Source of the DNA: Novosphingobium sp.
GTDB taxonomy: Bacteria; Pseudomonadota; Alphaproteobacteria; Sphingomonadales; Sphingomonadaceae
Reading direction: 5' to 3'
DNA length: 64,000 nt
Assembly (NCBI RefSeq): GCF_027489515.1
Contig: NZ_JAIXZS010000083.1
Span: 123,686-187,685 of the forward strand
The notes beneath the pieces are model-generated. The model was not told the DNA's origin, searched no databases, and saw nothing but the letters and a program-made list of their open reading frames with translations. Positions 12,727 through 36,617 of this stretch are shown here, in pieces (the stretch's first letter is position 1; every line of letters starts with the position of its first letter). The position numbers were made by a program, and so were the translations under genes.

Positions 12727-12732
12727 CCGGGC

Positions 12733-15132: not shown

Positions 15133-15155
15133 TCTCACCCTTCCCGCTTTATTTC

Positions 15156-15169
15156 TGTGAACGTTCCCA
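15156..15169. promoter_or_regulatory. LacI-type operator TGTGAACGTTCCCA upstream of GH3
   Basis: 14-bp near-palindrome with central CG. It matches the two sites at 26386-26417. Confidence 0.7.
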
Positions 15170-15220
15170 ATAGCGTTCGTCGCATGAGAAAGCATCAAAA
15201 TCAAGCGGGGCTGTCAGATT

Positions 15221-17495: not shown

Positions 17496-17498
17496 GCG

Positions 17499-18437
17499 TT
17501 ACTTGTTCCCTTCTTGTGGCGCAGGCGCTGCGCTGGCGGTTGCCACAGGCTTTTGCCAGACGCGCACCCAATCGATCAAGAAGCGCTTGGGAAAATTGGT
17601 GTTGGCGATACCCTTGAGGCCGCGCGATTCCGCCAGACCCCCGCCGAACGCGAGATTGAGGATAAGGTGAAAGGGCTGATCAAATGGCGCGCCGGGCGTG
17701 GCTGAGCCTGATGTCCACCATTCGCTACGCTGGCGCACGGCATAGGTCTGGCCGTCGATCTGCCAGACGATCTGATCGCCCCGCCATTCGATGGCGTAAG
17801 TGTGGAAGCCCTTCAGCACTGCGGGTTTGTGGACTTCCGTGCCCTTGTGGCTGTTGCCGGGCCACGGCTTGCCGAAATGGAGCGTGCCGAGGATCGTGTC
17901 CTCCTTGCCGCCGGCGCAGGAGGCGCAAGGAACGCCGAGGTTGACGGCCTCGAGAATGTCGATCTCGCCAGAGGCGGCCCAGGTGCCGTAAGTGTCCTTT
18001 TCCGGCAGCATCCAGATCGCAGGCCAGGTACCCTGACCTTGCGGCAGATTGGCGCGCACTTCGATGCGGCCATAGCGCCAGGCGGCCTTGCCACGCGTGG
18101 TGAGGCGTGCGGAGCTGTAGTCCCGGGTGACAAGCGCACCGGGCTCGGCCGGGTTGGCGCGCTGGCTGGCGGGAAGTGCGGGGCCGGTGACGCGCTCGTT
18201 GCGCGCGGTGATGACGAGCTTGCCTTGCACAATCCGCGCGTTGCGCGGCTTGTCGGTGTAGCATTGACGTTCGTTGTTGCCGCCGCCCCAGCAATCGACA
18301 TCGAAGCCCCACTTGGCGGGATCGATCGCCGGGCCGGTGAACTCGTCGGACCAGACGAGTTGCCAACCGGGCCCAGTGGGCGCAGCCAGCGCGGGAAGCG
18401 GTACGGCCAGTACGGCGAGGGCGAGCAAGTGCCGCAT
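17499..18437 (-). CDS. GH16 laminarinase-type endo-beta-1,3-glucanase
   Basis: WSDEF, YGRIEVRA, WPAIWML, catalytic EIDILE, FHTYAIEW, FDQPFHLILNLAFGG. Signal peptide present. Confidence 0.92.
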   Translation of the reverse strand: MRHLLALAVLAVPLPALAAPTGPGWQLVWSDEFTGPAIDPAKWGFDVDCWGGGNNERQCYTDKPRNARIVQGKLVITARNERVTGPALPASQRANPAEPGALVTRDYSSARLTTRGKAAWRYGRIEVRANLPQGQGTWPAIWMLPEKDTYGTWAASGEIDILEAVNLGVPCASCAGGKEDTILGTLHFGKPWPGNSHKGTEVHKPAVLKGFHTYAIEWRGDQIVWQIDGQTYAVRQRSEWWTSGSATPGAPFDQPFHLILNLAFGGGLAESRGLKGIANTNFPKRFLIDWVRVWQKPVATASAAPAPQEGNK

Positions 18438-19939: not shown

Positions 19940-20967
19940 TGGCTGAGGGTCCTTAGCAGGAAGGAGCGGAGGCGGCCGGCGGCGGCCGGATCGAGCGGAT
20001 CCAGAATGCCGCGCCCGCCTTCGGGAATGTGGTCGGTGACATCAGGTCCGTTCTCGAACACGTAGTAATCGAAGAGCGCGCGCCAGATCGCCTTGTCCTC
20101 GCTTGGCAGATCGCGGATCGATAGGATTGCGTGGTTGAGCGCATCCTGCGGCTGGCCAAGCCAGCGCGGGGTATCGCGCCACCAGTAATTCATCAGAATG
20201 TTGAACGGGGCGAGCCCTTCGACATGGTGCCACCACATCGAGGGGATGAAGAGCGCGTCGCCGGGTTCCAGCACCGCAACCTGCGCGTGGGCGAGCGCCT
20301 CGGCAAAGCGAGGGTGCCGATCGAGATCGGGCGCATGGAAATCGACCATCGAGACCGCGCGGCCCGCCGGCGTGTTGTCGATAGGGCCGAGGTGTAGACC
20401 CGCGAACTGATCGGGCGGGAACAGCGTGAAGCGGCGGCGGCCGGCGGCGCAGCAGGCGAGATTGTCCGGAAAATCGTTGTGCGCCGCGATCCGGGTCGGC
20501 GTGCCGATCCACAAGCTGATGACGGGCTCGCGCCTGCCGAGATCGAGGGCGTTTTCGGCGGCGACGGTGGTGAAGTGCGTCGGCACGTCGATCGAGCCCA
20601 TGTAGATCGCGGGGGCATCGGCGCGGCCTTCGTTGGCGTCCATGCCGCCGAACACATCGGCCAGCTTGCCCCGCGCCTCGCGGAAATTCATCGCCATGTC
20701 GTCGCCGTAGAACAGGCGGCCGTCCTTGCCCGGCTCACCCAGCGAGACGGTGAAGGGAACGGGGCGGGCGCGTTCGAGAAGATAGGCGCGCGCGGTTCTG
20801 GCTGACACGAGCCCTGCCTGCACCAGCGGCCAATGGCGGACGAGGCCGCGGATCACGAAGGGCGTGCGCGCGCCCTGCAGCAGTGCATCGAGCGCGGCGG
20901 CATCGGGTGCCGCGCGCTCTTCCACCGCGGGCATCGCGGCGAATATCGAGGCATCCGCCTCAGCCAA
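19936..20967 (-). CDS. Cupin-like / JmjC-type putative Fe(II)-2OG oxygenase
   Basis: HxD...H triad (AAHNDFPDN...WWHHVE) and LEPGDALFIPSMWWH. Confidence 0.8.
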   Translation of the reverse strand: MAEADASIFAAMPAVEERAAPDAAALDALLQGARTPFVIRGLVRHWPLVQAGLVSARTARAYLLERARPVPFTVSLGEPGKDGRLFYGDDMAMNFREARGKLADVFGGMDANEGRADAPAIYMGSIDVPTHFTTVAAENALDLGRREPVISLWIGTPTRIAAHNDFPDNLACCAAGRRRFTLFPPDQFAGLHLGPIDNTPAGRAVSMVDFHAPDLDRHPRFAEALAHAQVAVLEPGDALFIPSMWWHHVEGLAPFNILMNYWWRDTPRWLGQPQDALNHAILSIRDLPSEDKAIWRALFDYYVFENGPDVTDHIPEGGRGILDPLDPAAAGRLRSFLLRTLSQ

Positions 20968-21694
20968 GGAGGACCTTGCGGTTCTTGCGCGCGATCAGGT
21001 TGCCAAACTGCGCGAGGCTGGCGAGCACCATGTAGATGCGCGCGAGATGGCCCTCGCGCATCAGCGCGGCAAGCGCTTCGCCGTCGAGGCTGGCGAGGCG
21101 TTCCTCGTGGATGGTGAGAAAGCCGACAAGCGACTGGACTGCGCCGTTGTCGAGCGTGACTTCGAGCGTGAAGGGCTCGACAAGGCCATAGGTTTCGAGC
21201 GCGGTGAAGAAGGCGGCGCCTTCCTGCCAGGCATAGTCGAGATCGCCGAGCATCGTGGCGACGGCTTCGAGATAGGGCGTAGGCGCCCCGGCATCATCGA
21301 ACACGCGCATGCCTTCACCGCGTGCGGCGATGCGGGGGCTGGCCATGTCGATGTGGACTTGCGGCGTTGCGCCCTCTTGCGCCGGGCGGCCGATGAGGAA
21401 GGGCTGCACGGCATGGGCCATGGGGCGATAGCGCGCTTCCCAGACCGTGCCCCCACCGAGGCCGGTCGCAAGGAAGAGGTTCTCGCCCGCCTCGAACCCG
21501 AACAGCGCGAGCGCGGCAAGCTTGCCGGTTTCGGCATCGCGGCGCAAAACGATGGGGTAATGCGCCTGCACCTCGCGGAATTCGGCCGGCATGGCGAGCG
21601 AGGCCATCACGTTGTCGCCGAATTCCGCGCCAGCTTCGGTCTGGATGCGAAGCTGGCCGTGATCGGTGGAATTGAGGATCTGGTGCTGGCTCAT
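20960..21694 (-). CDS. SapC family protein
   Basis: [49 protein letters not shown]. Typical companion of halogenase/TBDR loci. Confidence 0.8.
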
Positions 21695-23220
21695 GCGGGT
21701 ATCCTGGCGGCTGCCGTGCGGGCAGCAAGATGATCGAGGTAGTCGCGCGTGGCCGGCAATGCGGCGGCAAGCGCGCGTGCCTTTGCCGCAATTTCGGCGA
21801 GGCGGGCAGGCGCGGCGGGCTGGCAGCCTGCAAGCGGAACGGGCATGCCCATGCCGTGCAGCACATATTGCTGGCTGGCGGCGGGGAACATCTCGTCGAC
21901 ACGAGGGAAATCCCAGGCCGACGGCGCCTGCTCACGCCACAAGGCGAGGCATTCGGCCAGGCGCGGCGGGATGGTTTCAGGCGCGCGCTGGGCCTGCCAA
22001 TAGGGCTCGGTCCGCCGGCTTGGCACATAGTGGAGCTTGAGGAATTCAACGACGCGGTCCCAGCGGTAGCGGAACAGCTCGTTGAAGCGCGCGGCGTGGA
22101 TATCCATGCTTGTGCGGTTTTGCGGGAAATTGTCGGCCAGCGCTTTCAGCGAGAGCTCGATCAGCACGATCGCCGAGGCTTCGAGCGGTTCGATGAACCC
22201 GGCGGAAAGACCCACGGCGAGGCAATTGCCGATCCAGAAGCGGTCACGGTGGCCGGTCCGGAAAGCTAGCTTGCGCGGGGTTAGGGTGGCGGGATCGGCG
22301 CCGGGCACTTTGGCCGCGACATAGGCCCTGAGGATCTCCGCCGCGCGGTCATCCGAGATGAAGCGCGAGGCATAGACGCAGCCGATGCCGCGGCGGGTGG
22401 GAAGGCCGATATCCCAAAGCCAGCCCGCCTCGTGCGCGGTGCCGATGGTCTGCGCGGCGATGGGGCTGCCGGGTTCGACCGGGACCTGCACCGCAAGCGC
22501 GCGGTCGTTGAAGGAAACGTCGGAGCGGTCGATCCAGGCGGCGCCGCATTCACCGGCAATGAGGATCGCGGCCTGGCCAGAGCAATCCACGAACAGGTCG
22601 CCTTCGAGCGAAGTTCCATCCTGCAGCAAGAGCGCAGCAATATCGCCGTTTGCTGCGCGGCTGACGCCCGTCACCTTTGCAGCAATCCGTGCCACGCCAA
22701 GCCGCTGGGTGGCGTGGCGCATGAGCAGCGCGGCAAACTTGCCGGCATCGAGATGGTAGCCGTAGTTCAGCGCGCCCGCATAATCGGGCATGGCGCGCTG
22801 GCGCGGTGCGAGGTGGGCTGCACAAACGGCATGCTGCGGGGTGATCGCCGCAGCAAACGGCCCCCCTTGGCCGCCCAACTGCCATGTGGCGGCAAGATCG
22901 CGCATCTCTGCCGCAGGCGGGGCGGTGAAGGGGTGAAGGTAGCTGTCTTCGGCCGAACCGTCACGCCATCCATCAAAGCGCGAGCCTTGCTTGAAGGACG
23001 CATCGCACTGGGTGAGAAATTCGGCTTCGGGAATGCCGATGGTCGCCAGCGTCTCGCGCATCGTCGGCCAGGTGCCTTCGCCGACGCCGATGGTCGGGAT
23101 ATCGGGCGCCTCGACCAGTGTAATTCGCTGTGCCGGAAGCCGCGCGCCGAGCAGGCTGGCCGAAAGCCATCCGGCGGTGCCGCCGCCGACGATGACGATA
23201 TGCTGGACCGGATTGCTCAT
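21691..23220 (-). CDS. Tryptophan-halogenase-family flavin-dependent enzyme (second paralog)
   Basis: ATG 23220 [26 protein letters not shown], Lys in ASFKQG, WLWDIG (variant of WxWxIP), FIEPLEASA. Confidence 0.88.
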
Positions 23221-23329
23221 CGAAGGGCGACCATAGCGCAGATTTGCCCGTGTGACCAAAGAGAAGAGCCGCACCGCTGCGTGCAGTGCGGCCCTCTCGA
23301 TTGCAGACCTTCGTTCAGGGATGAACCTG

Positions 23330-26323
23330 TCAGAAGGAGAAGCGTGCGCCTGCTGCCCAACGCGCATAACCGGGCGCCGCGAAGAACACGGTCTGGTCGT
23401 TGCGCATGTGGCCCTTGCGATCGGCGTTGGTGATGTTGATCCCTTCGCCGAAGACAGTGACGCCCTTCTTGATCTCGTAGCTCGCGCTCACGTCCCACTG
23501 GCCGTAGGGGTTCACGTAGTACGGATCGAAGCCGTAGCCCGACAGGAACCCGGCGCGCCAGTTGTAGGCGACGCGGGCCTGGAGGCCCTTCTTGTCGTAG
23601 TAGAGCACCGCGTTCGCACTGTTGCTGATGCCGGTGACCGCGAACTGCGGGACGGTATAGCGCTTCGTGTTGTCGAACTTGGTATCGCTGCGCACCACGG
23701 TGTAGTTCACGATGGCACCGAAACCGGTTTCCCAGAAGCTGTGCTGGACCGCGAATTCCCAGCCCCAGATGCGGGCCTTCTGGTCGCTGTTGGTCGGCTG
23801 CGTGGTGATGAAGTTGACCAGCGGATCATCCGCCAGCGACTTCACGCCCGTCACGTTGCCCGCGCCGTCACGGCCGGCGACCGTCTGCGGATACTTGTTG
23901 CCGATGTAGTTGAGGATCTGCTGCGCGGTGGCATCAGCCCCGAGTGCGGCACGCGCCTCCTTGGCCCGGTCGCCAGCGGCCGCGTTGGTCAGGCCGAAGG
24001 CGGGCTGATTGACCTGCGTCTGGCTGATGTAGTTCTTCACGACCTTGTGGAAGAAGCCCACCGAGATATAGCTCGTCGGCCCGTAGTACCATTCACCCGA
24101 GATATCGACGCCCTTCGACTTGTAGGGCAGCAGGTTCGGGTTGCCGCTCGAGGCCGTGCTGCCGCCGATGCGGATCGGCGAGGCGAGCGTGGTGCCGCCC
24201 TGCATGCTGGCATAGTCCGGACGGGTGATCGTGTGGCTGTACGACGCGCGGAACTTGAAGTTCTTGAACGGCTGCATGTCGAAGTCGATCGCAGGCAGCC
24301 AGTTCTCGTACTGGCCCTTGAGCGTCACGAATGAACGCTCTGCACCGTAGATGATCGCGGTTTCGTTACCACCGGTCCACACCGTGCCCGAGGGGATCGG
24401 CACGAGCGCGCTCGAATCGACCTTGGTCTTTTCGTAACGCAGGCCGAGGCGCAGATGCGACGGCGCATCGCCCAGATCGAACGAGTGCGTCGACTGGATG
24501 TAAGGCGCAACCGTGCGTTCGCGGATCGAGCGGTCGGTATCGAACTTGGCAAGGCAGGTACCGGCGGTCTGCGCGTTGGCGCAGATGCCGATCTTGTCGT
24601 TGAGCAAGTTGATCAGGCCGGGCGTGTTGACATTGAAGTAGCTCGGAATGATCCCGCTGCCCGTCACGTTCATGCCGCTGAGATCATTGGGCAGATCGCG
24701 GATGGTGTAGAGATCGTCGGGCGTATCGGCCTTGGACAGCGTGCCGCCCCAGGTGTCGTTCTGGATGACGCCGAAGGCCGAGCGGACCTTGTTTTCGGTG
24801 TAGGTCACGCCGAAATCGAGGCTGTCGATGAACGAGGCGTCGAAATCGTAGCCGCCGCGCAAGGACGCCTCGTTGATCTCGTCACGCATGTAGGCGGTGC
24901 GGAAGGCGTTGCCGGCGGGGCGGATGTTGGCCGCGTTGATCTCGGCGCCCGGGTACATCTCGACCGAGATGACCGGCATGTCTGAGGTGAAATCGACCTT
25001 CTGGCTCTTCACGCCGAAGATCGCGCTGCCGACGGCAATGCCCGACCCGTACGGTGCGGTCGGCTTGCTTTCGGCGGTCGAGTGATGGCCGTCGAGCTCG
25101 AGGCGGAGGCCGCCCGGACCATCCCACTTGAGGTTGCCGCCGATCGAGTGGTTGCGCGAGCGGTTGGCCGCGACCGCGCCGGTGATGGCGAGGTCCTTGC
25201 CTTCGTTGGGCCCGAAGCTTTCAGCGTAGAAGTTGGGGCCGGCGGCGGGGCCATCGGTCCAGCTGCTGCTCGTCTGGTTGTGGTTGAACCACACGCCGAT
25301 GCTGTTGGTGCGCGCATCGATGGTGTTCTGCGAGAAGGTGTAATCGACCGTGGCGACGAGCGTGTCGGTCGGCTTGACCTGGATCACGGCCTGACCGTTG
25401 ATGCGCTCGCGGCGGAAGGTGGTGAAATCGTAGCCGGCGTTCTGCGTCACCTGATAGACGGTGTTCGGGCCGGGCCGGTTTTCGGTCTTGGCGAAGTTGC
25501 CGCGCCAGTCATTGGCGTCGACCGGGAGCGAACCCCAGTTGTTTTCATAGCCGAGGTAGCCTTCGCGCCAGCCGGCGTTGAACTGCGCCTGGCTCGCGCG
25601 GCGATCCTGATAGGAGCCGCTGATCGAGATACCGATGCGGTTGTCGGCGAAGGTATCGCTGATGACGCCCGAGAATTCCGGCTTCACCTTGCCGCCTTCG
25701 AACACCGAAGTATCGTAGAGTGCCTTCGCGCCGATGCTGCCGTGAAGGCCGGGGCGGTCGAGCGGACGCGGCGTCTTGATGTTGATCACCGAACCGATAC
25801 CGCCGGTGGCGAGGTTGGCGCGGCCCGACTTGTAGACTTCGACACCCGCGATGCCTTCCGAGGCGAGGTTGGCGAAATCGAAGCTGCGCGAGGCCGGCGC
25901 GCCGCTCGAGCCGCCGAGGCTGGAGGCGGGCATCTGGCGGCCGTTGAGCAGCACAAGGTTGTAATCGGGGCCGAAGCCGCGGACGGTGACGAACTGGCCT
26001 TCACCGTTGCTGCGGTCGATCGAGACGCCGGTGATGCGCTGCAGCGATTCCGCAAGGTTGGTATCGGGGAACTTGCCGATGTCTTCCGCCGAGATCGCAT
26101 CGATCACGCCGATGCCGGTGCGCTTGATATTGAGCGAGCTCTTGAGCGAGGCCCGGATGCCGGTGACGACGATGGCGGCCGGCGCGTCGTCGCTCGCAGC
26201 CTGCGGTGCGGCCGCGGGCTGAGCCGCTTCCTGCGCCATTGCCTGCTGAGCGGTGAGAGCGAGTGCGGCTGCAGAAGCGCCCAGCATGAGGTGGGCATAG
26301 GCAGGCTTGCGCGATGCTTTCAT
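23330..26323 (-). CDS. TonB-dependent receptor (carbohydrate-utilisation type)
   Basis: ATG 26323 with [37 protein letters not shown]-terminal GARFSF. Confidence 0.95.
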
Positions 26324-26385
26324 TGCGATTCTTCCCCCTGAATTCCGGCGCTTTGTCCGGTTGAGTAAGCGTGTGCCGTGTTGGT

Positions 26386-26417
26386 TGTGAACGTTCACCT
26401 AGCTGGGAACGTTCACT
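26386..26417. promoter_or_regulatory. Tandem LacI-type operators TGTGAACGTTCACC and TGGGAACGTTCACT
   Basis: Two near-palindromes with starts 18 bp apart, upstream of the TBDR. Same consensus as 15156-15169. Confidence 0.72.
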
Positions 26418-26585
26418 TCGTCAAGACGATACCGGGCGTTTTGCGCAGCAGTGGTTGCAGTTTTTGCGCAGCCCTGAGGGGCGAGCGTCAGCCGCGAACC
26501 CCAGGCCGGCCTGAAACGATGGCGTGCGCCAACGCCGCAGCGGGCGCTGGCCTAGAGCACCGCTGCAGGGGCCGCGAGTTCGGTT

Positions 26586-27515
26586 TCAGCGCTTCTCGCC
26601 AGCAAGGAAGCGTTCGAGCGGCATGAGCGCGGCGGCGGGGCTTTCCTCAAAGGGCACGTGGCCCATGCCGGGCAGGCGGACGAGGCGGGCGCCGGGCATG
26701 AGGCGCAGGTAATCCTGGGCGTTGCTGATGGGGATCATCGCATCCTGCTCGCCCCACAGGAGGAGCGTAGGTGCGGTGATGCTGCGCAAGCGCGGGGCGG
26801 GATCCGTCAGCACGGTCTGGCGAGTGCGATCAAGGATTGCGCGGCGCACGCCGGGCGCGAGCAGCATGTCGCGGTAGCGATCGAGTACGGCATCGGGGAG
26901 CGCGTCGGGGTGTGCCCATGCCGGCGCGAGATTGGCACGGATAAGGCTGCGCGGGCCGACCCACGGCATGGCCTCCAGCATGAGCGGCACTTCGGGCGCC
27001 TTGCCATATTCGAAGCCGGGGCTGGCGAAGCCGTCAGGGGAGATCAGCACGAGCTTGTCGACACGCTGCGGATAGTGCGCGGCGAACTCCCAGGCGAAAC
27101 GGCCGCCGAGCGAATTGCCGATCAACGTGGCCTTGGGGAGCGCCAGCTGGTCCATCAGCGCGGCAAGAACCGCGAGGGTGCGCGCGTCCGAATAATCACC
27201 GGTGGGATCGGGGCCGGTGAGGCCGAAGCCGGGGAGATCGAGGCGGATGACGCGGTAACGGGCGGAAAGTGCCTTGGCCCATGCGTCCCAGGTATCGAGG
27301 CTGGAGCCGAAGCCGTGAAGCAGGATCACTGCCGGCGCCTCGCGCGGGCCGGTATCGCGCAGGCGCACACGCAGGCCGAGGACGGTGCGATAGTCCGAAG
27401 GGTAGGCGGCCTCCAGCGCAGCGCGAGGCTTGTCGGGCGCGTAGAGCCACACGGCGAGGCTGGCGATGGCGACGAGGAGGAGCCCTGCTGTCCAGCGCAG
27501 GATGCGGCGGATCAT
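26586..27515 (-). CDS. Alpha/beta-fold hydrolase with N-terminal membrane anchor
   Basis: LHGFGSS oxyanion motif, GNSLGG nucleophile elbow, GHVPFEE catalytic His. ATG 27515. Confidence 0.85.
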   Translation of the reverse strand: MIRRILRWTAGLLLVAIASLAVWLYAPDKPRAALEAAYPSDYRTVLGLRVRLRDTGPREAPAVILLHGFGSSLDTWDAWAKALSARYRVIRLDLPGFGLTGPDPTGDYSDARTLAVLAALMDQLALPKATLIGNSLGGRFAWEFAAHYPQRVDKLVLISPDGFASPGFEYGKAPEVPLMLEAMPWVGPRSLIRANLAPAWAHPDALPDAVLDRYRDMLLAPGVRRAILDRTRQTVLTDPAPRLRSITAPTLLLWGEQDAMIPISNAQDYLRLMPGARLVRLPGMGHVPFEESPAAALMPLERFLAGEKR

Positions 27516-27516
27516 A

Positions 27517-28473
27517 TCAGAACACCGCGTGCTCGCCGCGATCATCCGGCGCGGCTTCGCCAGCGAGCACGGCGCGGTAGTGATCGAACAGGGTGTCGCT
27601 GCCGGTTTCGGGCGTCAACGCGGCGCTGTATTGGCCGGTCGCGGGATCGAGAACGAGCATGGATTCCGTCGCATAGTAGTGCCCGATGCGGGCAAGTTCG
27701 GCCTTGGTGGCGAGCGCGGGGACGAGGCGCGCGGCAAGGCCGAGTGTACCAGCGATGCCGCCGATGAAGCCCGGTGGGACCGAGCGGTACTTGGGCGGCA
27801 GGCCGGCGAGGGCGAAGAGTGCCTCGCCCTGATCGCGCGGGGTGATCGCAGGGCCGGGGCCGCCAATGGGAAGCACCTTGTTCCAGCGTTCGGGATCGGT
27901 GAGGCAACCGGCGATATAGGCGGCAAGATCACGGTTGCTGATCGGCTTGCAGGCGGTGAGCGTGCCATCACCGAAAAGGAGGAAAGGCTTGCCCTGGCGC
28001 ACACGCTCGATCTGGCCGGATAGTGATTTGAAGAAGGCGGTTGGGCGTACGATCGAATAGCGCAAGCCCGAGGCGATCAGCTCGGCCTCGAAAGCGAGCT
28101 TGGCCTGCTGGAAGGCGCGGAGCGGCTTCTGCACGCAGATTGCCGAGAGCAGCACGAAATGCTGCGCACCGCATCGCTCGGCGAGGGCGAGCGCGTGGCT
28201 GTGCGCCTTGTGGTCAATCGCCCAGGCATCACGCGGGACACCGGTGCGCGAGGCCATGCAGGAGACGACGGCGTCGAAATGTTCGCCGGCAAAGCCATCA
28301 TGCATCAGGCTGACCGTATCGGCAGGGTCGGCGCGGCGGAGGCGTACGCTGGGGAGGGGCTCGGCGGGCTCGTGCCGGACAATCGCGACGACCTCGTGCC
28401 CCGCATCGACAAGCGCCTGCGCGGTCGCCCTGCCGATCGTGCCAGTGGCACCGAGCAGCGCGACGCGGCTCAT
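27517..28473 (-). CDS. bciA: Divinyl (proto)chlorophyllide 8-vinyl reductase, NAD(P)-binding
   Basis: GATGTIG Rossmann motif plus DVR-diagnostic stretches VVSCMASRTG, HFVLLSAICVQKP, SIVRPTAFFKSL, FGDGTLTACKPIS, IGGPG, IGHYYATESML, matching my recollection of plant DVR/BciA. Confidence 0.8.
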   Translation of the reverse strand: MSRVALLGATGTIGRATAQALVDAGHEVVAIVRHEPAEPLPSVRLRRADPADTVSLMHDGFAGEHFDAVVSCMASRTGVPRDAWAIDHKAHSHALALAERCGAQHFVLLSAICVQKPLRAFQQAKLAFEAELIASGLRYSIVRPTAFFKSLSGQIERVRQGKPFLLFGDGTLTACKPISNRDLAAYIAGCLTDPERWNKVLPIGGPGPAITPRDQGEALFALAGLPPKYRSVPPGFIGGIAGTLGLAARLVPALATKAELARIGHYYATESMLVLDPATGQYSAALTPETGSDTLFDHYRAVLAGEAAPDDRGEHAVF

Positions 28474-29330
28474 GGCCTCGGCGCGGCTTTGGCGGCCATG
28501 ACCTGCCGGCCATCGGCGGCGTGGGCGGCGAGGATGAAGCCGGCTTCATCGCGCTTCAGGGCAAGGTGCAGGGGCTCGTCGGCCACGGCGGGAGAAACGG
28601 CACGGAAGCTGAACTTCGCCAGCGCCGTTTCCGATCCCAGCGTGCGGCGGGCGAGATCGAGCAGCAAGGTGGCGATCAGCGGACCGTGGACGACGAGACC
28701 GCGATAGCCCTCGGTGCCGGTCGCGTAAGGGTGATCGTAGTGTATGCGGTGGGTGTTGAAGGTGAGCGCGGAGAAGCGAAACAGGAGCGCAGCAGTGGGG
28801 AGCACTTCGCGCACCGCATCCCACCCGGCGGGATCGAAGCGGCCTTCGCCCAGCGGCGGCGGGGCGGGCGGGCTGCCGGGGGGCGGGGCATCGCGGTAGA
28901 CCAGCGTCTGCGTTTCGCGGACCGCGAGGGTTTCGCCCGCGAAGGTTTCGTGCGCGAGCTCGGCAAAGACGAGCGGGCCTGTGCCACCCTGCTTTTCGGT
29001 GATCGAAAGCACGCGGCTGCGGCGTTCGATGACGCTGTCGCAGGGGATCGGGGCAAGGAATTCGGCGGACCCCGCCGCCCACATGCGGCGTTCGAGCGGG
29101 AGAGGGGGGAGGAGGCTGCCGGGGCTGTCGTCGCGCCTGGGGTGGCCGTCCGGCCCCAGCATGGCGGTCGCGGCATCGGGCGTGCAAAGGCACCAGTGGA
29201 GGCCCTGAGGGGCAGCGTTGTCTGCAGGCTCGGCGCGGTCCAGCGTGGCGCACCAGCGGGTGAGCAGGCTGGCGATGAGCACATCGCGGCGCAATTCCTC
29301 GCGGCCGATCCATGCGGTGTAATCCGCCAT
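28470..29330 (-). CDS. meh: Double hot-dog dehydratase, mesaconyl-C4-CoA hydratase-like
   Basis: RRMWAAG, LFRFSALTFNTHRIHYDHPY, GLVVHGPL. Same operon as mct and mcd homologues. Confidence 0.65.
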   Translation of the reverse strand: MADYTAWIGREELRRDVLIASLLTRWCATLDRAEPADNAAPQGLHWCLCTPDAATAMLGPDGHPRRDDSPGSLLPPLPLERRMWAAGSAEFLAPIPCDSVIERRSRVLSITEKQGGTGPLVFAELAHETFAGETLAVRETQTLVYRDAPPPGSPPAPPPLGEGRFDPAGWDAVREVLPTAALLFRFSALTFNTHRIHYDHPYATGTEGYRGLVVHGPLIATLLLDLARRTLGSETALAKFSFRAVSPAVADEPLHLALKRDEAGFILAAHAADGRQVMAAKAAPRP

Positions 29331-30916
29331 CAGCCGCGCCCCGCCATGAGGCCGCGCGCGATGACTTGCGCCTGAATTTCCGCCGCGCCTTCAAAGATCG
29401 AAAGGATGCGCGCGTCGCACAATACGCGGCTGATCTCGTATTCGAGCGCATAGCCGTTGCCGCCGTGGATTTGCAGGCTGGCGTCGGCTGCGGTCCATGC
29501 GGCGCGGGCGGCGTGGAGCTTGGCCATGCCGGCTTCGATATCGCAGCGGCGGCCCGCGTCCTTGGCGCGCGCGGCGGCGTAGGAGAGTTCGCGCGCGGTG
29601 ACGTATTCGGCGAGCATGACCGCGAGTTTGTCCGCCACGCGGGGAAAGTGGATGAGTGCCTGCCCGAACTGCTTGCGCTGGAGCGCGTAATCGAGGCCCA
29701 GTTCCAGCGCGCGGCGGGCGGTGCCGACGGCGCGCGCGGCGGTCTGGATGCGGGCGCCTTCGAAGGTCTGCATGAGCTGCTTGAAGCCGGCGCCTTCCTT
29801 GCCGCCGAGAAGGGCATCGGCGGGCGCGCGCATGCCATCGAACTGCAAGGTGTATTCGCGCATGCCGCGGTAGCCGAGGACTTCGATTTCGCTGCCGGTC
29901 ATGCCTTCGGCGGGGAAGGGGTTGTCCTCGGTGCCGCGCGGCTTGGGGACGAGGAGCATGGAAAGGCCGGCGTAGCCCGGGGTGTCGGGCTGGGTGCGGA
30001 CGAGCAGCGTCATCACGTCGGACCGGGCGGCGTGGGTGATCCAGGTCTTGGCGCCGTGGATGACCCAGTCGCCGCTTTCATCCTGCTTCGCGCGGGTGGT
30101 GAGGGCGCCGAGATCGGAGCCGACATCGGGTTCGGTGAAGACCGCGACGGGTAGGGTCTCGCCCGCCGCGATGCGGGGGAGCCATTCGGCCTTCTGCGCT
30201 TCGGTGCCGCCGAGCATGATGAGTTCGCCCGCGATCTCCGAGCGGGTGCCGAGCGAGCCTGCGCCGATCCAGCCGCGCGAGAGTTCCTCGCTGACAAGGC
30301 ACATGACCAGCTTGCCGAGGCCGAGGCCGCCGTACTCCTCAGGAATGCAGACGCCGAAGGTGCCGAGATCGGCCATCGCGCGCACGGTCTCGTCCGGGAT
30401 AAGTGCATTGGCGAGGTGCCACTTGTGCGCGTGGGGGAGGATCTCGGCATCGGTGAAGCGGCGGAACTGGGCGCGGATTTCATCGAGCGCAGCGTCGTGG
30501 AAGGTTTCGCTGGGCCATTGGCCTTCGGCGAGCGCGGCGGCGAGAGCGGCGCGGGTTTCGGCCATGTCGGCATCGAGCAAGGGCGCGGCGATATCGGCGA
30601 GGGTGCGGGCTTCGGCGGTGAGCCCGAGGTCTGCCGGGCGCAGCATTTCGGCGGGGCCCATGAGGAGCGCGCCGGTGAGCTGGCCTAGCGTTTCGGCGAA
30701 AGCGAGCTGCGCAACATGGGCATCGAGCGGATTGCTGCTTCCCTCGGCCCACTGCGCGACGGCTTCGAGAGCGGCCACGCTGGTGGCGATCCATGCAAAG
30801 CCGTGCGCGGCGCGCTGCTCCGCATCGACCGGACGGTTGGCGAGGCGGCGGGCGAGCGCGGCGCGGGCGGCTTCGCGGTAGGCAATGGCCGCAAGAAGCG
30901 GCGCTTTGAGGTCCAT
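29330..30916 (-). CDS. mcd: (2S)-methylsuccinyl-CoA dehydrogenase-like acyl-CoA dehydrogenase
   Basis: Extra N-terminal domain (QRAAHGFAWIAT), SEELSRGWIGAGSLGTRSEIA, GSEIEVLGYRGMREY, LCDARILSIFEGAAEIQAQVIAR, matching my recollection of Rhodobacter Mcd. ATG 30916. Confidence 0.78.
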   Translation of the reverse strand: MDLKAPLLAAIAYREAARAALARRLANRPVDAEQRAAHGFAWIATSVAALEAVAQWAEGSSNPLDAHVAQLAFAETLGQLTGALLMGPAEMLRPADLGLTAEARTLADIAAPLLDADMAETRAALAAALAEGQWPSETFHDAALDEIRAQFRRFTDAEILPHAHKWHLANALIPDETVRAMADLGTFGVCIPEEYGGLGLGKLVMCLVSEELSRGWIGAGSLGTRSEIAGELIMLGGTEAQKAEWLPRIAAGETLPVAVFTEPDVGSDLGALTTRAKQDESGDWVIHGAKTWITHAARSDVMTLLVRTQPDTPGYAGLSMLLVPKPRGTEDNPFPAEGMTGSEIEVLGYRGMREYTLQFDGMRAPADALLGGKEGAGFKQLMQTFEGARIQTAARAVGTARRALELGLDYALQRKQFGQALIHFPRVADKLAVMLAEYVTARELSYAAARAKDAGRRCDIEAGMAKLHAARAAWTAADASLQIHGGNGYALEYEISRVLCDARILSIFEGAAEIQAQVIARGLMAGRG

Positions 30917-30918
30917 GC

Positions 30919-32151
30919 TCAGGCCGCGCGCTCGAAGACTGCGGCGATGCCCTGGCCGCCGCCGATGCACATGGTCTCAAGGCCGAAGCGGCCGTCGCGC
31001 CGGACGAGTTCGCGTGTGAGGTTGGCGAGGATGCGCCCCCCGGTCGCACCGATGGGATGGCCGAGCGAAATGCCCGATCCGTTGACGTTGAGCACATCGT
31101 GGCGGCTGTCGTTGTCGGACCAGCCCCAACCCTTGAGCACGGCGAGGACTTGCGGCGCGAAAGCTTCGTTGAGTTCGACGAGGTCGATATCGCTCCAGCC
31201 GAGGCCGGTGCGGGCGAACAGGCGCTCGACCGCCGGGACGGGGCCGATGCCCATGCGCGCCGGATCGCAGCCGGCGGCCGCCCAGGAGTGGAACCAGGCG
31301 ATGGGTTCGAGGCCGAGTTCTTCGAGCTTGTGTTCGGCGACGACGAGGCAGGCGGCGGCGGCGTCGTTCTGCTGGCTGGCGTTGCCGGCAGTGACAACCG
31401 CGCCGGGGATGGCCTTGGCTTCCAAGGCTTTCAGCGCGCCGAGGCTCTCCATCGTCGCGTCGGCACGGTAGCCTTCGTCGTGGGCGAAGATCTTGGGGTC
31501 GCCCTTCTTCTGGGGGATTTCGACAGGGACGAGTTCATCATCGAACAGGCCGTTCTTCCACGCGGCGGCGGCGCGCTGGTGGCTGCGGACGGCATAGGCG
31601 TCGCAGGCTTCGCGACTGATATCGTAGTCGCGCGCGAGGTTTTCGGCCGTTTCGATCATGCCTGAGATCACGCCAAAGCGCTCGATCGGCTGCGACATGA
31701 GGCGGCCGCGGGTGAGGCGGTCGTGGAGCATCAGGCCCCCCGCGCGGGTGCCGCGGCGGCCTTCGGTGGTGTAGTATTCGACGTTCGACATGGACTCGAC
31801 GCCGCCCGCGACGACGACATCGGACTGGCCGGTCTGCACCATCATCGCGGCGTTGATGACGGCTTGCAGGCCCGAGCCGCAGCGGCGGTCGAGCTGGTAG
31901 CCGGGGACTTCCATGGGGAGCCCGGCGGCGAGCCATGACCAGTGGCCGATGGCTGGCGCTTCGGCATTGCCATAGCCTTGCGAGAAGACGACGTCGTCGA
32001 CCCGTGCGGGGTCGATCTTCGTGCGCTCCATCAGCGCTTTGAGGATAACCGCGCCAAGCTGGCCGGCGTTGAGATCGGCAAGGCTGCCGCCGAACTTGCC
32101 GACGGCGGTACGGATGGGGGCGACAATGGCGGCGCGAGTGAGCTTGGTCAT
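30919..32151 (-). CDS. Thiolase (acetyl-CoA C-acyltransferase)
   Basis: ATG 32151. DRRCGSGLQA catalytic Cys, ELNEAFA, GHPIGATG, TMCIGGGQG. Confidence 0.92.
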   Translation of the reverse strand: MTKLTRAAIVAPIRTAVGKFGGSLADLNAGQLGAVILKALMERTKIDPARVDDVVFSQGYGNAEAPAIGHWSWLAAGLPMEVPGYQLDRRCGSGLQAVINAAMMVQTGQSDVVVAGGVESMSNVEYYTTEGRRGTRAGGLMLHDRLTRGRLMSQPIERFGVISGMIETAENLARDYDISREACDAYAVRSHQRAAAAWKNGLFDDELVPVEIPQKKGDPKIFAHDEGYRADATMESLGALKALEAKAIPGAVVTAGNASQQNDAAAACLVVAEHKLEELGLEPIAWFHSWAAAGCDPARMGIGPVPAVERLFARTGLGWSDIDLVELNEAFAPQVLAVLKGWGWSDNDSRHDVLNVNGSGISLGHPIGATGGRILANLTRELVRRDGRFGLETMCIGGGQGIAAVFERAA

Positions 32152-33356
32152 GCGGAGGTTCCTGCGATGCCGGCTTCGATAAGCTGGTCTATGGCTTGGG
32201 GATCGAGGGCGAGGTGGCTGGCGAGCACTTCGCGCGTATCGGCGCCGAGCACGGGCGCGGGGGCGGGGGTGCGGCGTTCGAGGCCCGGGAAGGTCGCGAA
32301 GGCCCCTGCCGCCGGGTAGGCGAAGCCGCTGGGGTTGTCCGCGGTGTGCTGGAACATCGGATTTTCGCCAACGAGCCGCGGGTCCTGCACGGCTTCGGGC
32401 ATGGACTTGTAGGGGCCGTGGGTGACGCCGTTCGCGTCGAGCTTTTCGGACAGGGCTGCGTGGGAGAGCGGGGCGATAGCAGCCTCGATCAACGCGTAGA
32501 TCGCATCGCGGTGGGTGTAGCGCACGCCGTCGTCGCCGGTGAAGGAGATGCCGTGGCGAGCCTCCAGCGCGGCGAGGCTCTGCTGGAGATCGAGCGCACG
32601 GACGAGGCCTTGCCATTGGCGTTCGTTGATCGCGACGATCATCACGCGCACGCCGTCAGCGGTCACGAAGTCGCGGCCGATCGTGCCGTAGACCCCGTTG
32701 CCGAGGCGCTCGCGGTCCGCGCAGTTCTGCAGGACTTCGGCGACGCGGCCGAGATTTGCGGCGGAGCCCATGGCGATATCGGTGAGGGGGAGGCGCACTT
32801 CGCCGCCGAGGCTGGTTTCATCCCGGCGTCGCAGCGCGGAGACGAGGGCGAAGGCGCCGTAGGCTCCGGTGAGGAGATCCCACGCGGGGAGAACGTGGTT
32901 GACCGGCGCGGGGTCGGCCAGTGTGCCGGTCAGCGCGGGATAACCGACGACGGCGTTGGCCGTATAATCGAGCGCGATGGCGCCATCCGGCCAGCCCATC
33001 ACGCGCACGGTGATAAGATCGGGGCGGCCGGCGGCGAGCTTCTCGTGGGCGAGGAAGCCGCCGACGGGGAGGTTCGTGACGAGGGTGCCGACGCTCTGGA
33101 TCAGGCGGGTGAGGACGTCGCGCCCTTCGCGGCTTGTGAGATCGAGCGCGACGCTCTTCTTGGCGCGGTTGAGGTTTTCCCACGAAAGCGAGTGGCCTTC
33201 GGGGGTCAGCGGCCAGCGCTTGAAATCCTGGCCCCCGCCAATCTGGTCGACTCGGATCACTTCGGCGCCGAACTGGGCGAGATAGAGCCCGATGGTCGGC
33301 GACGCGACGAAGGAGGAGACCTCGATCACCGTGATACCGGAGAGCAGATTGTACAT
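32148..33356 (-). CDS. mct: Family III CoA-transferase, mesaconyl-CoA C1-C4 intramolecular transferase-like
   Basis: ATG 33356. GGGQDFKRWP, LNRAKKSV, LDYTAN, VNHVLPAWDLLTG, GNGVYGTIGRDFVTADG, closely paralleling my recollection of Chloroflexus Mct. Confidence 0.72.
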   Translation of the reverse strand: MYNLLSGITVIEVSSFVASPTIGLYLAQFGAEVIRVDQIGGGQDFKRWPLTPEGHSLSWENLNRAKKSVALDLTSREGRDVLTRLIQSVGTLVTNLPVGGFLAHEKLAAGRPDLITVRVMGWPDGAIALDYTANAVVGYPALTGTLADPAPVNHVLPAWDLLTGAYGAFALVSALRRRDETSLGGEVRLPLTDIAMGSAANLGRVAEVLQNCADRERLGNGVYGTIGRDFVTADGVRVMIVAINERQWQGLVRALDLQQSLAALEARHGISFTGDDGVRYTHRDAIYALIEAAIAPLSHAALSEKLDANGVTHGPYKSMPEAVQDPRLVGENPMFQHTADNPSGFAYPAAGAFATFPGLERRTPAPAPVLGADTREVLASHLALDPQAIDQLIEAGIAGTSA

Positions 33357-33499
33357 GGGGTCGCGGGCTTTCAGGACGGTTCTTGTGGTTTGTCCCACCG
33401 TGTAATCAATCGAGCGTTTAAGCCAAGGGCCTTGGCGGGTAGCTGTCGATTTCGAGGGGAGAGTGCCCAGGGCGCACCTCATGTCAGAGCGGCTCTTAT

Positions 33500-33597
33500 C
33501 CCCCTTCGTCATTGCGAGGAGCGCAGCGACGAAGCAATCCAGAGCTCTGTGCGTGCCGCTCTGGATTGCTTCGCTTCGCTCGCAATGACGAAGGGGG
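33500..33597. repeat. CGTC-tagged REP-like palindromic element (98 bp)
   Basis: Perfect 19-bp terminal inverted repeat CCCCCTTCGTCATTGCGAG / CTCGCAATGACGAAGGGGG and a perfect inner 15-bp inverted repeat GAAGCAATCCAGAGC / GCTCTGGATTGCTTC. Confidence 0.85.
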
Positions 33598-33666
33598 CAG
33601 GGACAAAGGGGCAGGGCGAGGGTGTGGTGTCTGGACTCCGCTCGGCACGAACGGATGGGGGGCCAA

Positions 33667-34140
33667 TTAGTCTGGCACTGGCAGCGCGGTGCGGTTCACG
33701 ATGGGGCGCAGGGCAAAGCTCGTCGTCACTTGCGCAACGCCGGCGATCCGCGTGAGACGCTTCCTCAGGAAATCCTCGAAGGCGGCGAGCGAGGGGACGA
33801 GGACTCGCAGCTGGTAGTCCGCCTCGCCGGTCATCAGGTAACAGTCCATGACTTCGGGAAACTCGGCGACGGCGCTTTCGAAGGTCGCAAGGTGGTGATC
33901 GTCCTGCTGGTCGAGCCGGATGCGCACGAAGGCGTTGACAGGGAGGCCAATGGTCTCTGGTTCGACCAAGGCGACATAGCCGGAGATCACCCCGCGTTCC
34001 TCCAGCGCGCGGACGCGGCGCAGGCAGGGGCTTGGGCTGAGGCCGACATCCTCGCAGAGCTGCTGGTTGGTGAGGCGGCCGTTCTGCTGGAGGCGGCGCA
34101 GGATCTTGCGGTCAATCGCGTCGAGATCGGTATCCGGCAT
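33667..34140 (-). CDS. Lrp/AsnC family regulator
   Basis: LDAIDRKILRRLQQNGRLTNQQL...LSPSPCLRRVRALEERGVISGY, CYLMTGEADY. Confidence 0.95.
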   Translation of the reverse strand: MPDTDLDAIDRKILRRLQQNGRLTNQQLCEDVGLSPSPCLRRVRALEERGVISGYVALVEPETIGLPVNAFVRIRLDQQDDHHLATFESAVAEFPEVMDCYLMTGEADYQLRVLVPSLAAFEDFLRKRLTRIAGVAQVTTSFALRPIVNRTALPVPD

Positions 34141-34163
34141 TATCTTTTACTCATGGCGCCAAA

Positions 34164-34182
34164 ATTGGCAGATTATGCCAAT
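34164..34182. promoter_or_regulatory. Candidate operator ATTGGCA-N5-TGCCAAT between the Lrp gene and the E1 gene
   Basis: Perfect 7-bp inverted repeat in the short divergent intergenic region. Confidence 0.45.
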
Positions 34183-34274
34183 AGTGTGCCCGTGCGAGGC
34201 AAAGTTCGCAAGACGCTGCGCGGCGCTTCCGGCTATGTTTCGTGAATCCACGCTTCACGACGGACTCGAATGCC

Positions 34275-36617
34275 ATGACCGCCGCACTTGCCGATCCCCG
34301 CGTCCAACTGGTCCCCGCCATCGAAGCGCTCGATGCGCGGCTGCGCTGGCTTTCGGCGTGGACGGTTCACAATGCCAACAACATCCGCACTAAGCGCGAC
34401 GGGATGAAGGTGGGCGGGCATCAGGCGAGCTGCGCTTCGATGTCGACGATCATGGCCGCGCTCTATTTCCATGCGCTGCGCCCGCAAGACAAGGTGGCGG
34501 TGAAGCCGCACGCAGGGCCGCTGCTCCATGCGATCCATTACATGCTGGGCAACCAGTCGCTCGAGCAGCTGCAGCGCTTTCGCGGGCTGGGCGGGATGCA
34601 GAGCTATCCCTCACGCACGAAGGACCAGATCCCGGTCGACTTCTCGACCGGATCAGTCGGCCTTGGCGTCGCAATCACCGCCTTTGCCAGCCTCGTGCAG
34701 GACTACTGCATCGCGCAGGGACATATGAGCGAGGCCGATGCGGGACGGATGATCGCGCTGATGGGCGATGCCGAGCTCGACGAAGGCAATATCTATGAAT
34801 GCCTGATCGAGGCCTACAAGCACGATATCCGCAATTGCTGGTGGGTGGTCGACTACAACCGCCAGTCACTCGATGCGACGACCGCGGACCGCATGTTCCG
34901 CCGCTTCGACGATATCTTCGAGACCTGCGGCTGGCGGGTGATCACGCTGAAGAGCGGGAAGCTGCAGAAGGCGGTGTTCGCGAAGCCCGGCGGGGCGGCG
35001 CTGGAGGACTGGATCGACAACTGCCCCAATGCCGAGTTTGCAGCGCTCACGTATCAGGGCGGTTCGGCCTGGCGCGAGCGGCTGATGAAGGACCTTGGCG
35101 ACCAGCCCAAGACGCGCGCTCTGATCGAGAGTTTCGACGATGCTGCGCTGGCGCAGCTGATGACCAACCTTGGCGGGCACTGCGCCGAGACGCTGATCGA
35201 GGCCTTTGCGCAGGCGAATGACGACAAGCCGACGCTATTCATCGCCTACACCGTCAAGGGCTATGGCCTGCCGCTGGCGGGGCACAAGGACAACCATTCG
35301 GGCATGATGAACACCGTGCAGATCGAGGGTCTGCGCGCGAGCATGGGCATTGCCGAAGGGGCAGAGTGGGAGCCGTGGGGCGGGCTGGGCGATAATCTGG
35401 TAGCGGAACTCAAGGCCTTCGTCGAGCGCAGCGCGCTGGCGGGGAAGCCTGCCGAGCACAGCCCGCCAGCGATACCGGTGCCCGCGCGGCTGGCGGTGCC
35501 GGAGGGCGAGGAGCAATCGACGCAGTCTGCCTTCGGGCGCATCCTGATGGATCTGGCGCGGCCCGGCGATCCGCTGGGCGACCGCATCGTCACGACGGCG
35601 CCCGACGTGACGCAGACCACGAACCTTGGCGGCTTCGTCAACCGGCGGGGCCTCTTCCGGCGGAGCGAGCTCAAGGACGTGTTTCAGGCTGCGCGCATCC
35701 CATCGGCGCAGAAGTGGGTGGGCAACACGGCCGGGCAGCATGTCGAGCTGGGGATTGCCGAGACCAACTTCTTCCTCGTGCTGGCAGCCTTCGGGCTTTC
35801 CGCGCCGCATTTCGGGACACGGCTGCTGCCGGTGGGGACGGTCTACGATCCCTTCATCGCGCGCGGGCTCGATGCGTTGAACTACGGCTGCTATCAGGAT
35901 GCGCGGTTCCTGCTGGTGGGGACGCCTTCAGGCCTCACGCTCGGCGCCGAGGGCGGCGCGCACCAGTCGATCAACACGCCGCTGATCGGGATGGGGCAGC
36001 CCAACCTCGATTACCTCGAACCGGCGTTTGCCGACGAAGTGGCGCTGCTGATGCGCCATGCCTTCGAGCATATGCAGAAGCCCGATGGGGCTTCGGTGTA
36101 CTTGCGGCTCAGCACGCGCTCGATCACGCAAGTCGTTCGCGAGGACGAGAGCTGGGAAGCCGATGCGTTGAAGGGCGCCTACTGGCTCAAGCGTCCGGCG
36201 CACGGCGCGGAGGCGGCCATCGTGTTCACCGGGGCGATCGCGCCCGAGGCGTTGGCGGCGTGGGAAACGCTGCGCGAGGATCTGCCGGGGCTGGGGCTGC
36301 TCAATGTGACTTCGCCCGATCTGCTCCACCGCGGCTGGTCGGCGCGGCGTGCGGCGCGCTGGACGGGCAAGAGGCCGGAACCCAGTCATATCGACACCCT
36401 GCTCGGCGCGCTTTCGCCGAATGCCGGGCTGGTGACGGTGATCGACGGATCGCCCTCGGCTCTCTCGTGGCTGGGCGCGGTCAAGGGCATGCGGGTGAGC
36501 CCGCTGGGAGTCGACCGGTTCGGCCAGACGGGCGATCTGCCCGACCTCTACCGGACCTACCGGCTCGATGCCGATGCGATCATCGATGCGGCGGCGGAGC
36601 TGTTTCTGGAGGGGTGA
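34275..36617 (+). CDS. AceE-like homodimeric 2-oxoacid dehydrogenase E1 (ThDP-dependent)
   Basis: GGHQASCAS, MQSYPS, FSTGSVGLG, ThDP motif GDAELDEG...DYNRQSLD, YTVKGYG, ELGIAE, EGGAHQS, FGQTGDLPDLY. ATG 34275. Confidence 0.8.
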   Translation: MTAALADPRVQLVPAIEALDARLRWLSAWTVHNANNIRTKRDGMKVGGHQASCASMSTIMAALYFHALRPQDKVAVKPHAGPLLHAIHYMLGNQSLEQLQRFRGLGGMQSYPSRTKDQIPVDFSTGSVGLGVAITAFASLVQDYCIAQGHMSEADAGRMIALMGDAELDEGNIYECLIEAYKHDIRNCWWVVDYNRQSLDATTADRMFRRFDDIFETCGWRVITLKSGKLQKAVFAKPGGAALEDWIDNCPNAEFAALTYQGGSAWRERLMKDLGDQPKTRALIESFDDAALAQLMTNLGGHCAETLIEAFAQANDDKPTLFIAYTVKGYGLPLAGHKDNHSGMMNTVQIEGLRASMGIAEGAEWEPWGGLGDNLVAELKAFVERSALAGKPAEHSPPAIPVPARLAVPEGEEQSTQSAFGRILMDLARPGDPLGDRIVTTAPDVTQTTNLGGFVNRRGLFRRSELKDVFQAARIPSAQKWVGNTAGQHVELGIAETNFFLVLAAFGLSAPHFGTRLLPVGTVYDPFIARGLDALNYGCYQDARFLLVGTPSGLTLGAEGGAHQSINTPLIGMGQPNLDYLEPAFADEVALLMRHAFEHMQKPDGASVYLRLSTRSITQVVREDESWEADALKGAYWLKRPAHGAEAAIVFTGAIAPEALAAWETLREDLPGLGLLNVTSPDLLHRGWSARRAARWTGKRPEPSHIDTLLGALSPNAGLVTVIDGSPSALSWLGAVKGMRVSPLGVDRFGQTGDLPDLYRTYRLDADAIIDAAAELFLEG

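Follow-up and report, generated by a model that had tools for sequence, protein, structure and literature searches.

A thiolase-linked mct-mcd-meh operon in Novosphingobium and its possible role in the catabolism of methyl-branched dicarboxylyl-CoA esters

Why would a bacterium in which the ethylmalonyl-CoA (EMC) pathway is not found keep an EMC-type methylsuccinyl-CoA dehydrogenase, and keep it in one operon with a thiolase and with relatives of two enzymes of the 3-hydroxypropionate bi-cycle? The question is raised by a stretch of 64,000 nucleotides from Novosphingobium sp. (contig NZ_JAIXZS010000083.1, positions 123,686 to 187,685; here called the window). An earlier interpretation of the letters alone, referred to below as the sequence-only reading, had placed four tightly coupled genes at 28470-33356, for proteins resembling the CoA-transferase Mct, a thiolase, the dehydrogenase Mcd and the hydratase Meh. 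The open reading frame positions, together with profile and structure matches, confirm both the coordinates and the gene identities; the coupled unit, however, comprises six genes and not four, as genes for a protein resembling short-chain dehydrogenases/reductases (SDR) and for an alpha/beta hydrolase follow meh. Transferase, Mcd and hydratase are each encoded once in the genome. We propose, with a probability of roughly 0.55, that the operon encodes the lower section of a pathway by which methyl-branched dicarboxylyl-CoA esters are broken down.

The clearest assignment is that of the dehydrogenase. The protein aligned with the Mcd of Paracoccus denitrificans (PdMCD; 6es9) over its whole length, extension included, with a score of 590 bits; the alignment covers query residues 15 to 524, query residue 15 corresponding to residue 35 of the 6es9 chain. 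Its acyl-CoA dehydrogenase (ACAD) domains begin at residue 145 (Pfam), and the N-terminal extension of about 170 residues that is a trait of the EMC type is present. In PdMCD the distal carboxylate is held by R252, R376 and R421, these arginines being held by E380, S248 and T418, and A285 and a shifted F287 form the pocket for the C2-methyl group; F534 and the catalytic E535 are likewise described (PMC5798300). Equivalents of all ten residues are kept in the alignment, which is strong evidence that the operon ACAD is a (2S)-methylsuccinyl-C1-CoA dehydrogenase. It thus shares with the Paracoccus enzyme its length class, its N-terminal extension and its substrate-pocket and catalytic residues, but differs in its setting: searches of the genome yielded no ccr, ecm or mch, those of the sampled family likewise no ccr, and the gene lies between those of the thiolase and the Meh-like hydratase.

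Among characterised enzymes, Mct is much the nearest to the transferase. Its structures 7xkg and 8apq were matched with E-values of 7e-89 and 2.5e-86, compared with 5e-25 for the next family III enzyme, and TIGR04253 (2-methylfumaryl-CoA isomerase) was the best NCBIfam model by a wide margin, at 316.8 bits. With the residues of Chloroflexus Mct as reference (PMC9813914), the protein keeps equivalents of the catalytic Asp165, of the carboxylate ligands Arg47 and Tyr136, and of Asn100 and Asp135. Those of Asp165, Arg47, Tyr136 and Asn100, shared with Mct, are invariant across 12 aligned homologs; that of Phe101 is Leu here and Phe in most of the 12. In Mct, Arg47 takes the place of a mobile glycine loop (PMC9813914). 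The Mct-like transferase may thus carry out an intramolecular CoA transfer. Unlike known Mct, it is found in a catabolic and not an autotrophic genomic setting.

The hydratase matched the itaconyl-CoA hydratase (Ich) of Pseudomonas aeruginosa (8huc, 8khg) with an E-value of 3e-47 over residues 4-257, and the Pfam model FAS1_DH_region with 23.3 bits, barely over its 22-bit cut-off. In common with P. aeruginosa Ich (8KHG), to which the match is full-length, it has an FN-HRIHYD stretch in the C-terminal hot-dog domain; unlike that enzyme, it is encoded without a neighbouring itaconate CoA-transferase or Ccl gene. P. aeruginosa Ich also hydrates mesaconyl-C4-CoA to (S)-citramalyl-CoA (PMC12290011).

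The thiolase scored 687 bits against the NCBIfam model PRK06205, the cut-off of which is 551 bits. Its closest structure is the beta-ketothiolase 4zrc/5byv (434 bits), which we take to be the T1-like degradative thiolase of Mycobacterium smegmatis; acetoacetyl-CoA and 3-oxoadipyl-CoA thiolases scored about 270-317 bits, with the best acetoacetyl-CoA thiolases at about 317 bits. The translation contains stretches resembling the catalytic Cys, His and Cys motifs.

How might these enzymes work together? The following scheme is inferred as regards the substrates (that of the thiolase included), the direction of flux, the intramolecular CoA shift and the lyase. The thiolase would cleave a 3-oxoacyl-CoA, most simply 4-methyl-3-oxoadipyl-CoA, to acetyl-CoA and 2-methylsuccinyl-C1-CoA, which Mcd would oxidise to mesaconyl-C1-CoA. 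The Mct-like transferase would shift the CoA from C1 to C4, the Meh/Ich-like hydratase would turn the resulting mesaconyl-C4-CoA into (S)-citramalyl-CoA, and an unlinked CitE-family lyase would split the latter to pyruvate and acetyl-CoA. A dehydrogenase specific for the C1 ester and a hydratase specific for the C4 ester need a C1-to-C4 shift of the CoA between them, and the succession of Mcd (acting on the C1 ester), Mct and Meh, leading to (S)-citramalyl-CoA, would appear to be the sole way in which the three enzyme types fit together. A comparable order of events, in which thiolysis comes first, an intramolecular CoA shift second and an ACAD third, is known for ThnP/ThnO in anaerobic naphthalene degradation (PMC11659651), where a dicarboxylyl mono-CoA ester arising from thiolysis is likewise made fit for the next enzyme by a CoA shift. 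Unlike the operon transferase, ThnP belongs to family I, and the substrates of ThnP/ThnO are unrelated (PMC11659651). The sequence-only reading had envisaged a hybrid catabolic funnel of this kind. Its Mcd, Mct and Meh chain fits the residue conservation, the synteny, the co-distribution and the apparent lack of the EMC pathway.

The setting of Mcd in the source genome (completeness 94.6%) is consistent with a function outside the EMC pathway. The search for ccr and ecm elsewhere in the genome, which the sequence-only reading had suggested, found neither: no Ccr match was over the cut-off, and just one B12-dependent acyl-CoA mutase is present in the genome, which leaves no separate Ecm. Mesaconyl-C1-CoA hydratase (Mch) gave no full-length match in the genome, only short MaoC-type proteins being matched to the Mch model, and isocitrate lyase is present. 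Without Ccr, Ecm and Mch, Mcd would act outside the EMC pathway here. Membership of that pathway was rejected on these grounds and because Ccr was found in 0/61 family genomes.

Is the arrangement conserved? We compared an order sample of 81 Sphingomonadales genomes with a family sample of 61 genomes from 60 genera. Ccr is found in 31 of the 81 order genomes. In seven other families of the order, Mcd is 54-62% identical and nearly always accompanied by Ccr, typically with ccr adjoining; examples of such ccr-mcd neighbours lie at G018:C214:1181-4053 and G004:C1:2755669-2758585. Within the same sample, the 14 other genomes of the own family have no Ccr, and all four that are Mcd-positive have the Mct-like transferase. 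In the family sample the Mct-like transferase is present in 21/61 genomes and EMC-type Mcd in 10/61, every one of these ten also having the Mct-like protein. Orthologs of the thiolase (at least 75% identity) are likewise found in 21/61; they co-occur with the Mct-like transferase in 19 of its 21 genomes, the two genes adjoining or lying within 2.5 kb of each other in 16. The Meh-like hydratase occurs in 22/61 genomes, including 17 of the 21 Mct-positive ones. Furthermore, orthologs of a canonical ACAD of about 390 residues are found in 23/61 genomes, in 19 of the 21 with the Mct-like transferase, and directly upstream of mct in 16.

From these counts, the canonical operon of the family is ACAD-mct-thl-(mcd)-meh, and the recurrence of the gene order in many Sphingomonadales genomes argues that the arrangement did not arise by chance. 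A sampled genome of the same genus has a contiguous ACAD-mct-thl-mcd-meh, and a Sphingopyxis locus reads SDR-ACAD-mct-thl-mcd-meh. Further afield, the mct-mcd-meh locus of a Pseudomonadota metagenome-assembled genome (MAG) includes an acyl-CoA ligase, two ACADs, a crotonase, two thiolases (one SCPx-type) and an SDR. In a MAG of the Gammaproteobacteria, mct-mcd-meh is immediately preceded by genes for a DUF35 protein and a thiolase of the SCPx type. With T1-like neighbours in some loci and SCPx-type neighbours in others, two thiolase subfamilies have been recruited beside the mct-mcd-meh trio. The tight and specific linkage of the thiolase argues that thiolysis feeds the Mcd-Mct-Meh chain.

In the source genome, the canonical ACAD (397 aa) is encoded at G000:C101:20720-21910 (L111:6721-7911) on the minus strand, alone beside a LysR-type regulator gene of divergent orientation. 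With the ACAD of the Sphingopyxis operon it shares 77% identity, and it keeps just one of the three Mcd arginines. It appears, from this comparison, that the canonical ACAD left the operon in the source genome and that the two accessory genes joined it. The canonical ACAD seems to belong to the module, where it would either serve the beta-oxidation turn that comes before or provide a second enzyme for the oxidation of methylsuccinyl-CoA. In Mct-positive genomes that lack Mcd, it may oxidise the C4 ester after a CoA shift on the saturated ester, or a different cycle may run.

Where would the methylsuccinyl-CoA come from? The release of this ester by the thiolase, as suggested in the sequence-only reading, is borne out as far as the link between thiolase and transferase is concerned, which is real; the proposed substrate, methyl-3-oxoadipyl-CoA, is still inferred. 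A precedent is offered by the mml pathway, with its MmlFG transferase, in which, according to PMC6449761 (citing Marin 2010), the thiolase MmlC cleaves 4-methyl-3-ketoadipyl-CoA to methylsuccinyl-CoA. The thiolytic origin of methylsuccinyl-CoA would be the same; unlike in the operon, its further fate lies outside the mml cluster. The earlier suggestion of a methylaromatic source is not supported, as neither MmlI nor muconolactone isomerase was found in the genome, and a methylcatechol origin is therefore unsupported here.

A different source can be put forward as a hypothesis from chemistry alone. Beta-oxidation from the omega end of isoprenoid diacids with a 3-methyl group at what was originally the carboxyl end would stop at 3-methyladipate, and the next turn would give 2-methylsuccinyl-C1-CoA. 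A candidate both for the upstream pathway and for the source of the lyase is a cluster of branched-chain beta-oxidation type at about 18000-27500 of G000:C16 (L110:4004-13501). Its genes encode a DUF35/OB-fold protein, an SCPx-type thiolase, a 150-aa MaoC hydratase, a CitE-like lyase, an ACAD, an SDR, an MFE-2-type hydratase and an OYE reductase, with a second ACAD and an acyl-CoA ligase on the opposite strand; the SDR is 57% identical to that of the Sphingopyxis mct operon. The SCPx-type thiolases, the MFE-2-type hydratase and the SDR genes of this and related clusters would fit methyl-branched chains.

The last step calls for a lyase. As the sequence-only reading had stated, the window holds no gene for citramalyl-CoA lyase, neither a CitE/HpcH-type nor an HMGL-type gene being found in it; an HMG-CoA-lyase-like gene (305-aa frame) lies at G000:C9:204480-205295, 17 kb past the window end. 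The search for ccl elsewhere, also proposed there, gave three CitE-like genes (on C103, C22 and C16), none of them near the cut-off of the RipC/Ccl model (119-170 bits against 375). In a PDB search, the C16 and C103 proteins were equally distant from Mcl, RipC, Rv2498c, CLYBL and PaCcl. Only 3/60 genomes have a true ortholog of the C16 lyase, and a paralog of about 50% identity is found in most of 45 genomes out of the 60, with or without Mct, so that the distribution profile does not discriminate.

Several observations weigh against the proposed route. The score of the transferase stays under the TIGR04253 cut-off of 725 bits. Moreover, at the Leu43 position the protein and its nearest relative have Gln and the ten other homologs Pro, while Leu or Ile there is said to be kept in all intramolecular Mcts (PMC9813914); the equivalents of Arg75 and Arg104 are changed to Thr and Gly, respectively. 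In view of the score and these changes, we call the protein Mct-like and stop short of naming it an established Mct. EMC-type Mcd is missing from 11 of the 21 Mct-positive family genomes, so linking Mcd to Meh may not be the main job of the transferase. The operon contains neither the usual 3-hydroxyacyl-CoA dehydrogenase nor a crotonase for the preceding beta-oxidation turn. No mml-type genes were found, the MmlI search having been run without a positive control and being a weak negative for that reason, and none of the three CitE-like genes closely resembles a known lyase or tracks the distribution of Mct.

Could the operon instead correspond, in sphingomonads, to the itaconate/methylsuccinate cluster of pseudomonads? 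In that case the transferase would be intermolecular and activate itaconate, methylsuccinate or mesaconate, the hydratase would be an Ich, the ACAD a methylsuccinyl-CoA dehydrogenase, and the thiolase would have a side role such as recycling of the CoA donor. PaIch is the closest characterised relative of the hydratase, the cluster PA0878-PA0883 likewise has an itaconate CoA-transferase, an ACAD and an Ich-type hydratase directed toward (S)-citramalyl-CoA (PMC12290011), and loss of the Leu43 'cork' would permit a more open, intermolecular site. That cluster, unlike the operon, has Ccl and a methylsuccinate isomerase and no thiolase (PMC12290011); neither Ccl nor an MmgE/PrpD isomerase is encoded in the operon, and the tight thiolase linkage would be left unexplained. 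The Mcd of the pseudomonad and Cupriavidus necator cluster is C4-specific and non-stereoselective (PMC12290011) and the pseudomonad cluster accordingly needs no Mct, whereas the ACAD here is of the C1 type with all PdMCD residues. Moreover, no intermolecular family III enzyme comes nearly as close to the transferase as Mct does, and the Arg47 equivalent is kept. We consider this interpretation unlikely.

It is still less probable that the genes form a self-contained beta-oxidation turn for some other dicarboxylate, which the transferase would activate, the ACAD oxidise, the Meh-like protein hydrate, the SDR-like protein (in relatives a classical SDR) oxidise at the hydroxyl group and the thiolase cleave, methylsuccinyl-CoA not being the substrate of the ACAD. 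The Bbs-type scheme consists of a family III CoA-transferase, an ACAD, a hydratase, an SDR and a thiolase, and the families of the operon match it; operons of the Sphingopyxis type add a classical SDR and a second ACAD, and the most widespread core in the family is ACAD-mct-thl-meh, without Mcd. However, the SDR-like gene is restricted to the nearest relatives, all ten residues lining the small pocket of PdMCD, with its three arginines and its room for the C2-methyl group, are kept, which argues against another substrate, and methylsuccinyl-CoA taken through such a cycle would yield chemically odd products (oxalyl-CoA). An assimilatory remnant, whether of a partial 3-hydroxypropionate bi-cycle with Mcr and Pcs or of an EMC variant, is in our view scarcely credible. 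Mct and Meh are known from the bi-cycle, and Mcr and Pcs are encoded on the same contig, side by side on the minus strand at about 12675-21977 of G000:C9 (L016:4676-8371 and L016:8495-13978), some 105 kb from the operon (Mcr against 6k8s/6k8v, 1265 and 933 bits for the two halves; Pcs against 6eqo, 2884 bits). Pcs occurs in 8/61 family genomes, though, and together with the Mct-like transferase in only two, the source genome included; the two are not co-distributed, which argues against a bi-cycle remnant, as do the negative searches for Mch, Ccr and Ecm and the presence of isocitrate lyase. Membership of the bi-cycle was thus tried and rejected: Mcr and Pcs are present, Mch is not found and Pcs does not accompany the Mct-like protein.

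To return to the catabolic route, its component enzyme types are each known. What may be new is the natural grouping of three of them, an EMC-type Mcd, an Mct-like transferase and a Meh/Ich-like hydratase, with a dedicated thiolase and an ACAD in bacteria without the EMC pathway; we found no description of such a grouping. No natural mcd-mct-meh route was described in the literature searched, which omits most subscription journals, so that absence is not proven. A 2025 paper from the Berg laboratory describes the C4-type Mcd of pseudomonads and terms methylsuccinyl-C1-CoA a dead-end product in C. necator (PMC12290011). In a 2026 preprint from the Erb laboratory, Mct, Meh and citramalyl-CoA lyase are expressed as components of the Ccr-THETA module, an engineered module belonging to the THETA cycle, and the pathway that holds this module is termed synthetic (10.64898/2026.01.16.699985). 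The operon, unlike the module, is natural, and would be fed by a thiolase instead of by Ccr and Ecm. If the route exists, methylsuccinyl-C1-CoA has a catabolic fate, intramolecular CoA transfer reaches from autotrophy into catabolism, and nature already employs reaction steps that were assembled synthetically in the Ccr-THETA module, the engineering of which could draw on well-adapted aerobic enzyme variants. Freshwater, soil and marine sphingomonads would then also represent an unknown sink for methyl-branched dicarboxylates.

A broader proposal, which we regard as doubtful, is that of a widespread natural Sphingomonadales pathway, with variants in Caulobacterales and some Gammaproteobacteria, for the disposal of isoprenoid acids, phytol derivatives among them, at the ends that a beta-methyl group blocks. 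Shortening from the omega end to 3-methyladipyl-CoA would be followed by thiolysis, Mcd, an Mct-type shift and Meh. Alpha-oxidation and carboxylation of the Atu/Liu type would then be joined by a third solution, and steps of the Ccr-THETA module would have a precedent in nature.

The genes of the operon and its candidate regulator are listed in Table 1.

Table 1. Positions in the window of the operon genes, from mct downstream, and of a candidate regulator gene.
Feature	Position	Strand	Remarks
Mct-like family III CoA-transferase	33356..32148	minus	402 aa; Pfam CoA_transf_3 over full length
Degradative (T1-like) 3-ketoacyl-CoA thiolase	32151..30919	minus	410 aa; Pfam Thiolase_N and Thiolase_C
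EMC-type (2S)-methylsuccinyl-CoA dehydrogenase homolog, Mcd	30916..29330	minus	528 aa; N-terminal extension of ~145 aa
Mesaconyl-C4-CoA/itaconyl-CoA hydratase homolog (Meh/Ich-like, double hot-dog)	29330..28470	minus	286 aa
NAD(P)-binding atypical SDR-like protein, accessory	28473..27517	minus	318 aa; Pfam NAD_binding_10, Epimerase, NmrA
Alpha/beta hydrolase with hydrophobic N-terminal segment, accessory	27515..26586	minus	309 aa; Pfam Abhydrolase_1, Abhydrolase_6
Lrp/AsnC-family regulator, candidate	33667..34140	minus	Pfam AsnC_trans_reg, HTH_24; 310 bp upstream of mct start

From mct to the hydrolase gene, successive reading frames first overlap by 4 nt, are then 2 nt apart, overlap by 1 nt and next by 4 nt, and are finally 1 nt apart. 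Translational coupling thus extends past meh to the SDR-like gene and to that of the alpha/beta hydrolase, which is described as membrane-anchored; apart from the source genome, only the two closest relatives (L017 and L018) have both genes beside the operon. A promoter and terminator scan of 26000-34400 gave no signal above the shuffled background. The Lrp/AsnC gene is divergent from a gene at 34242-36617 on the plus strand, encoding a 791-aa protein resembling transketolase and the E1 component of pyruvate dehydrogenase, with no E2 or E3 gene adjoining. From its position, the regulator may control the mct operon or the E1-like gene. The pair is kept only in the nearest relatives, a homolog of the regulator lying at the equivalent place in L017. 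The nearest public operon is that of the cultured relative N. sediminis NBRC 106119, with protein identities of 83-96%.

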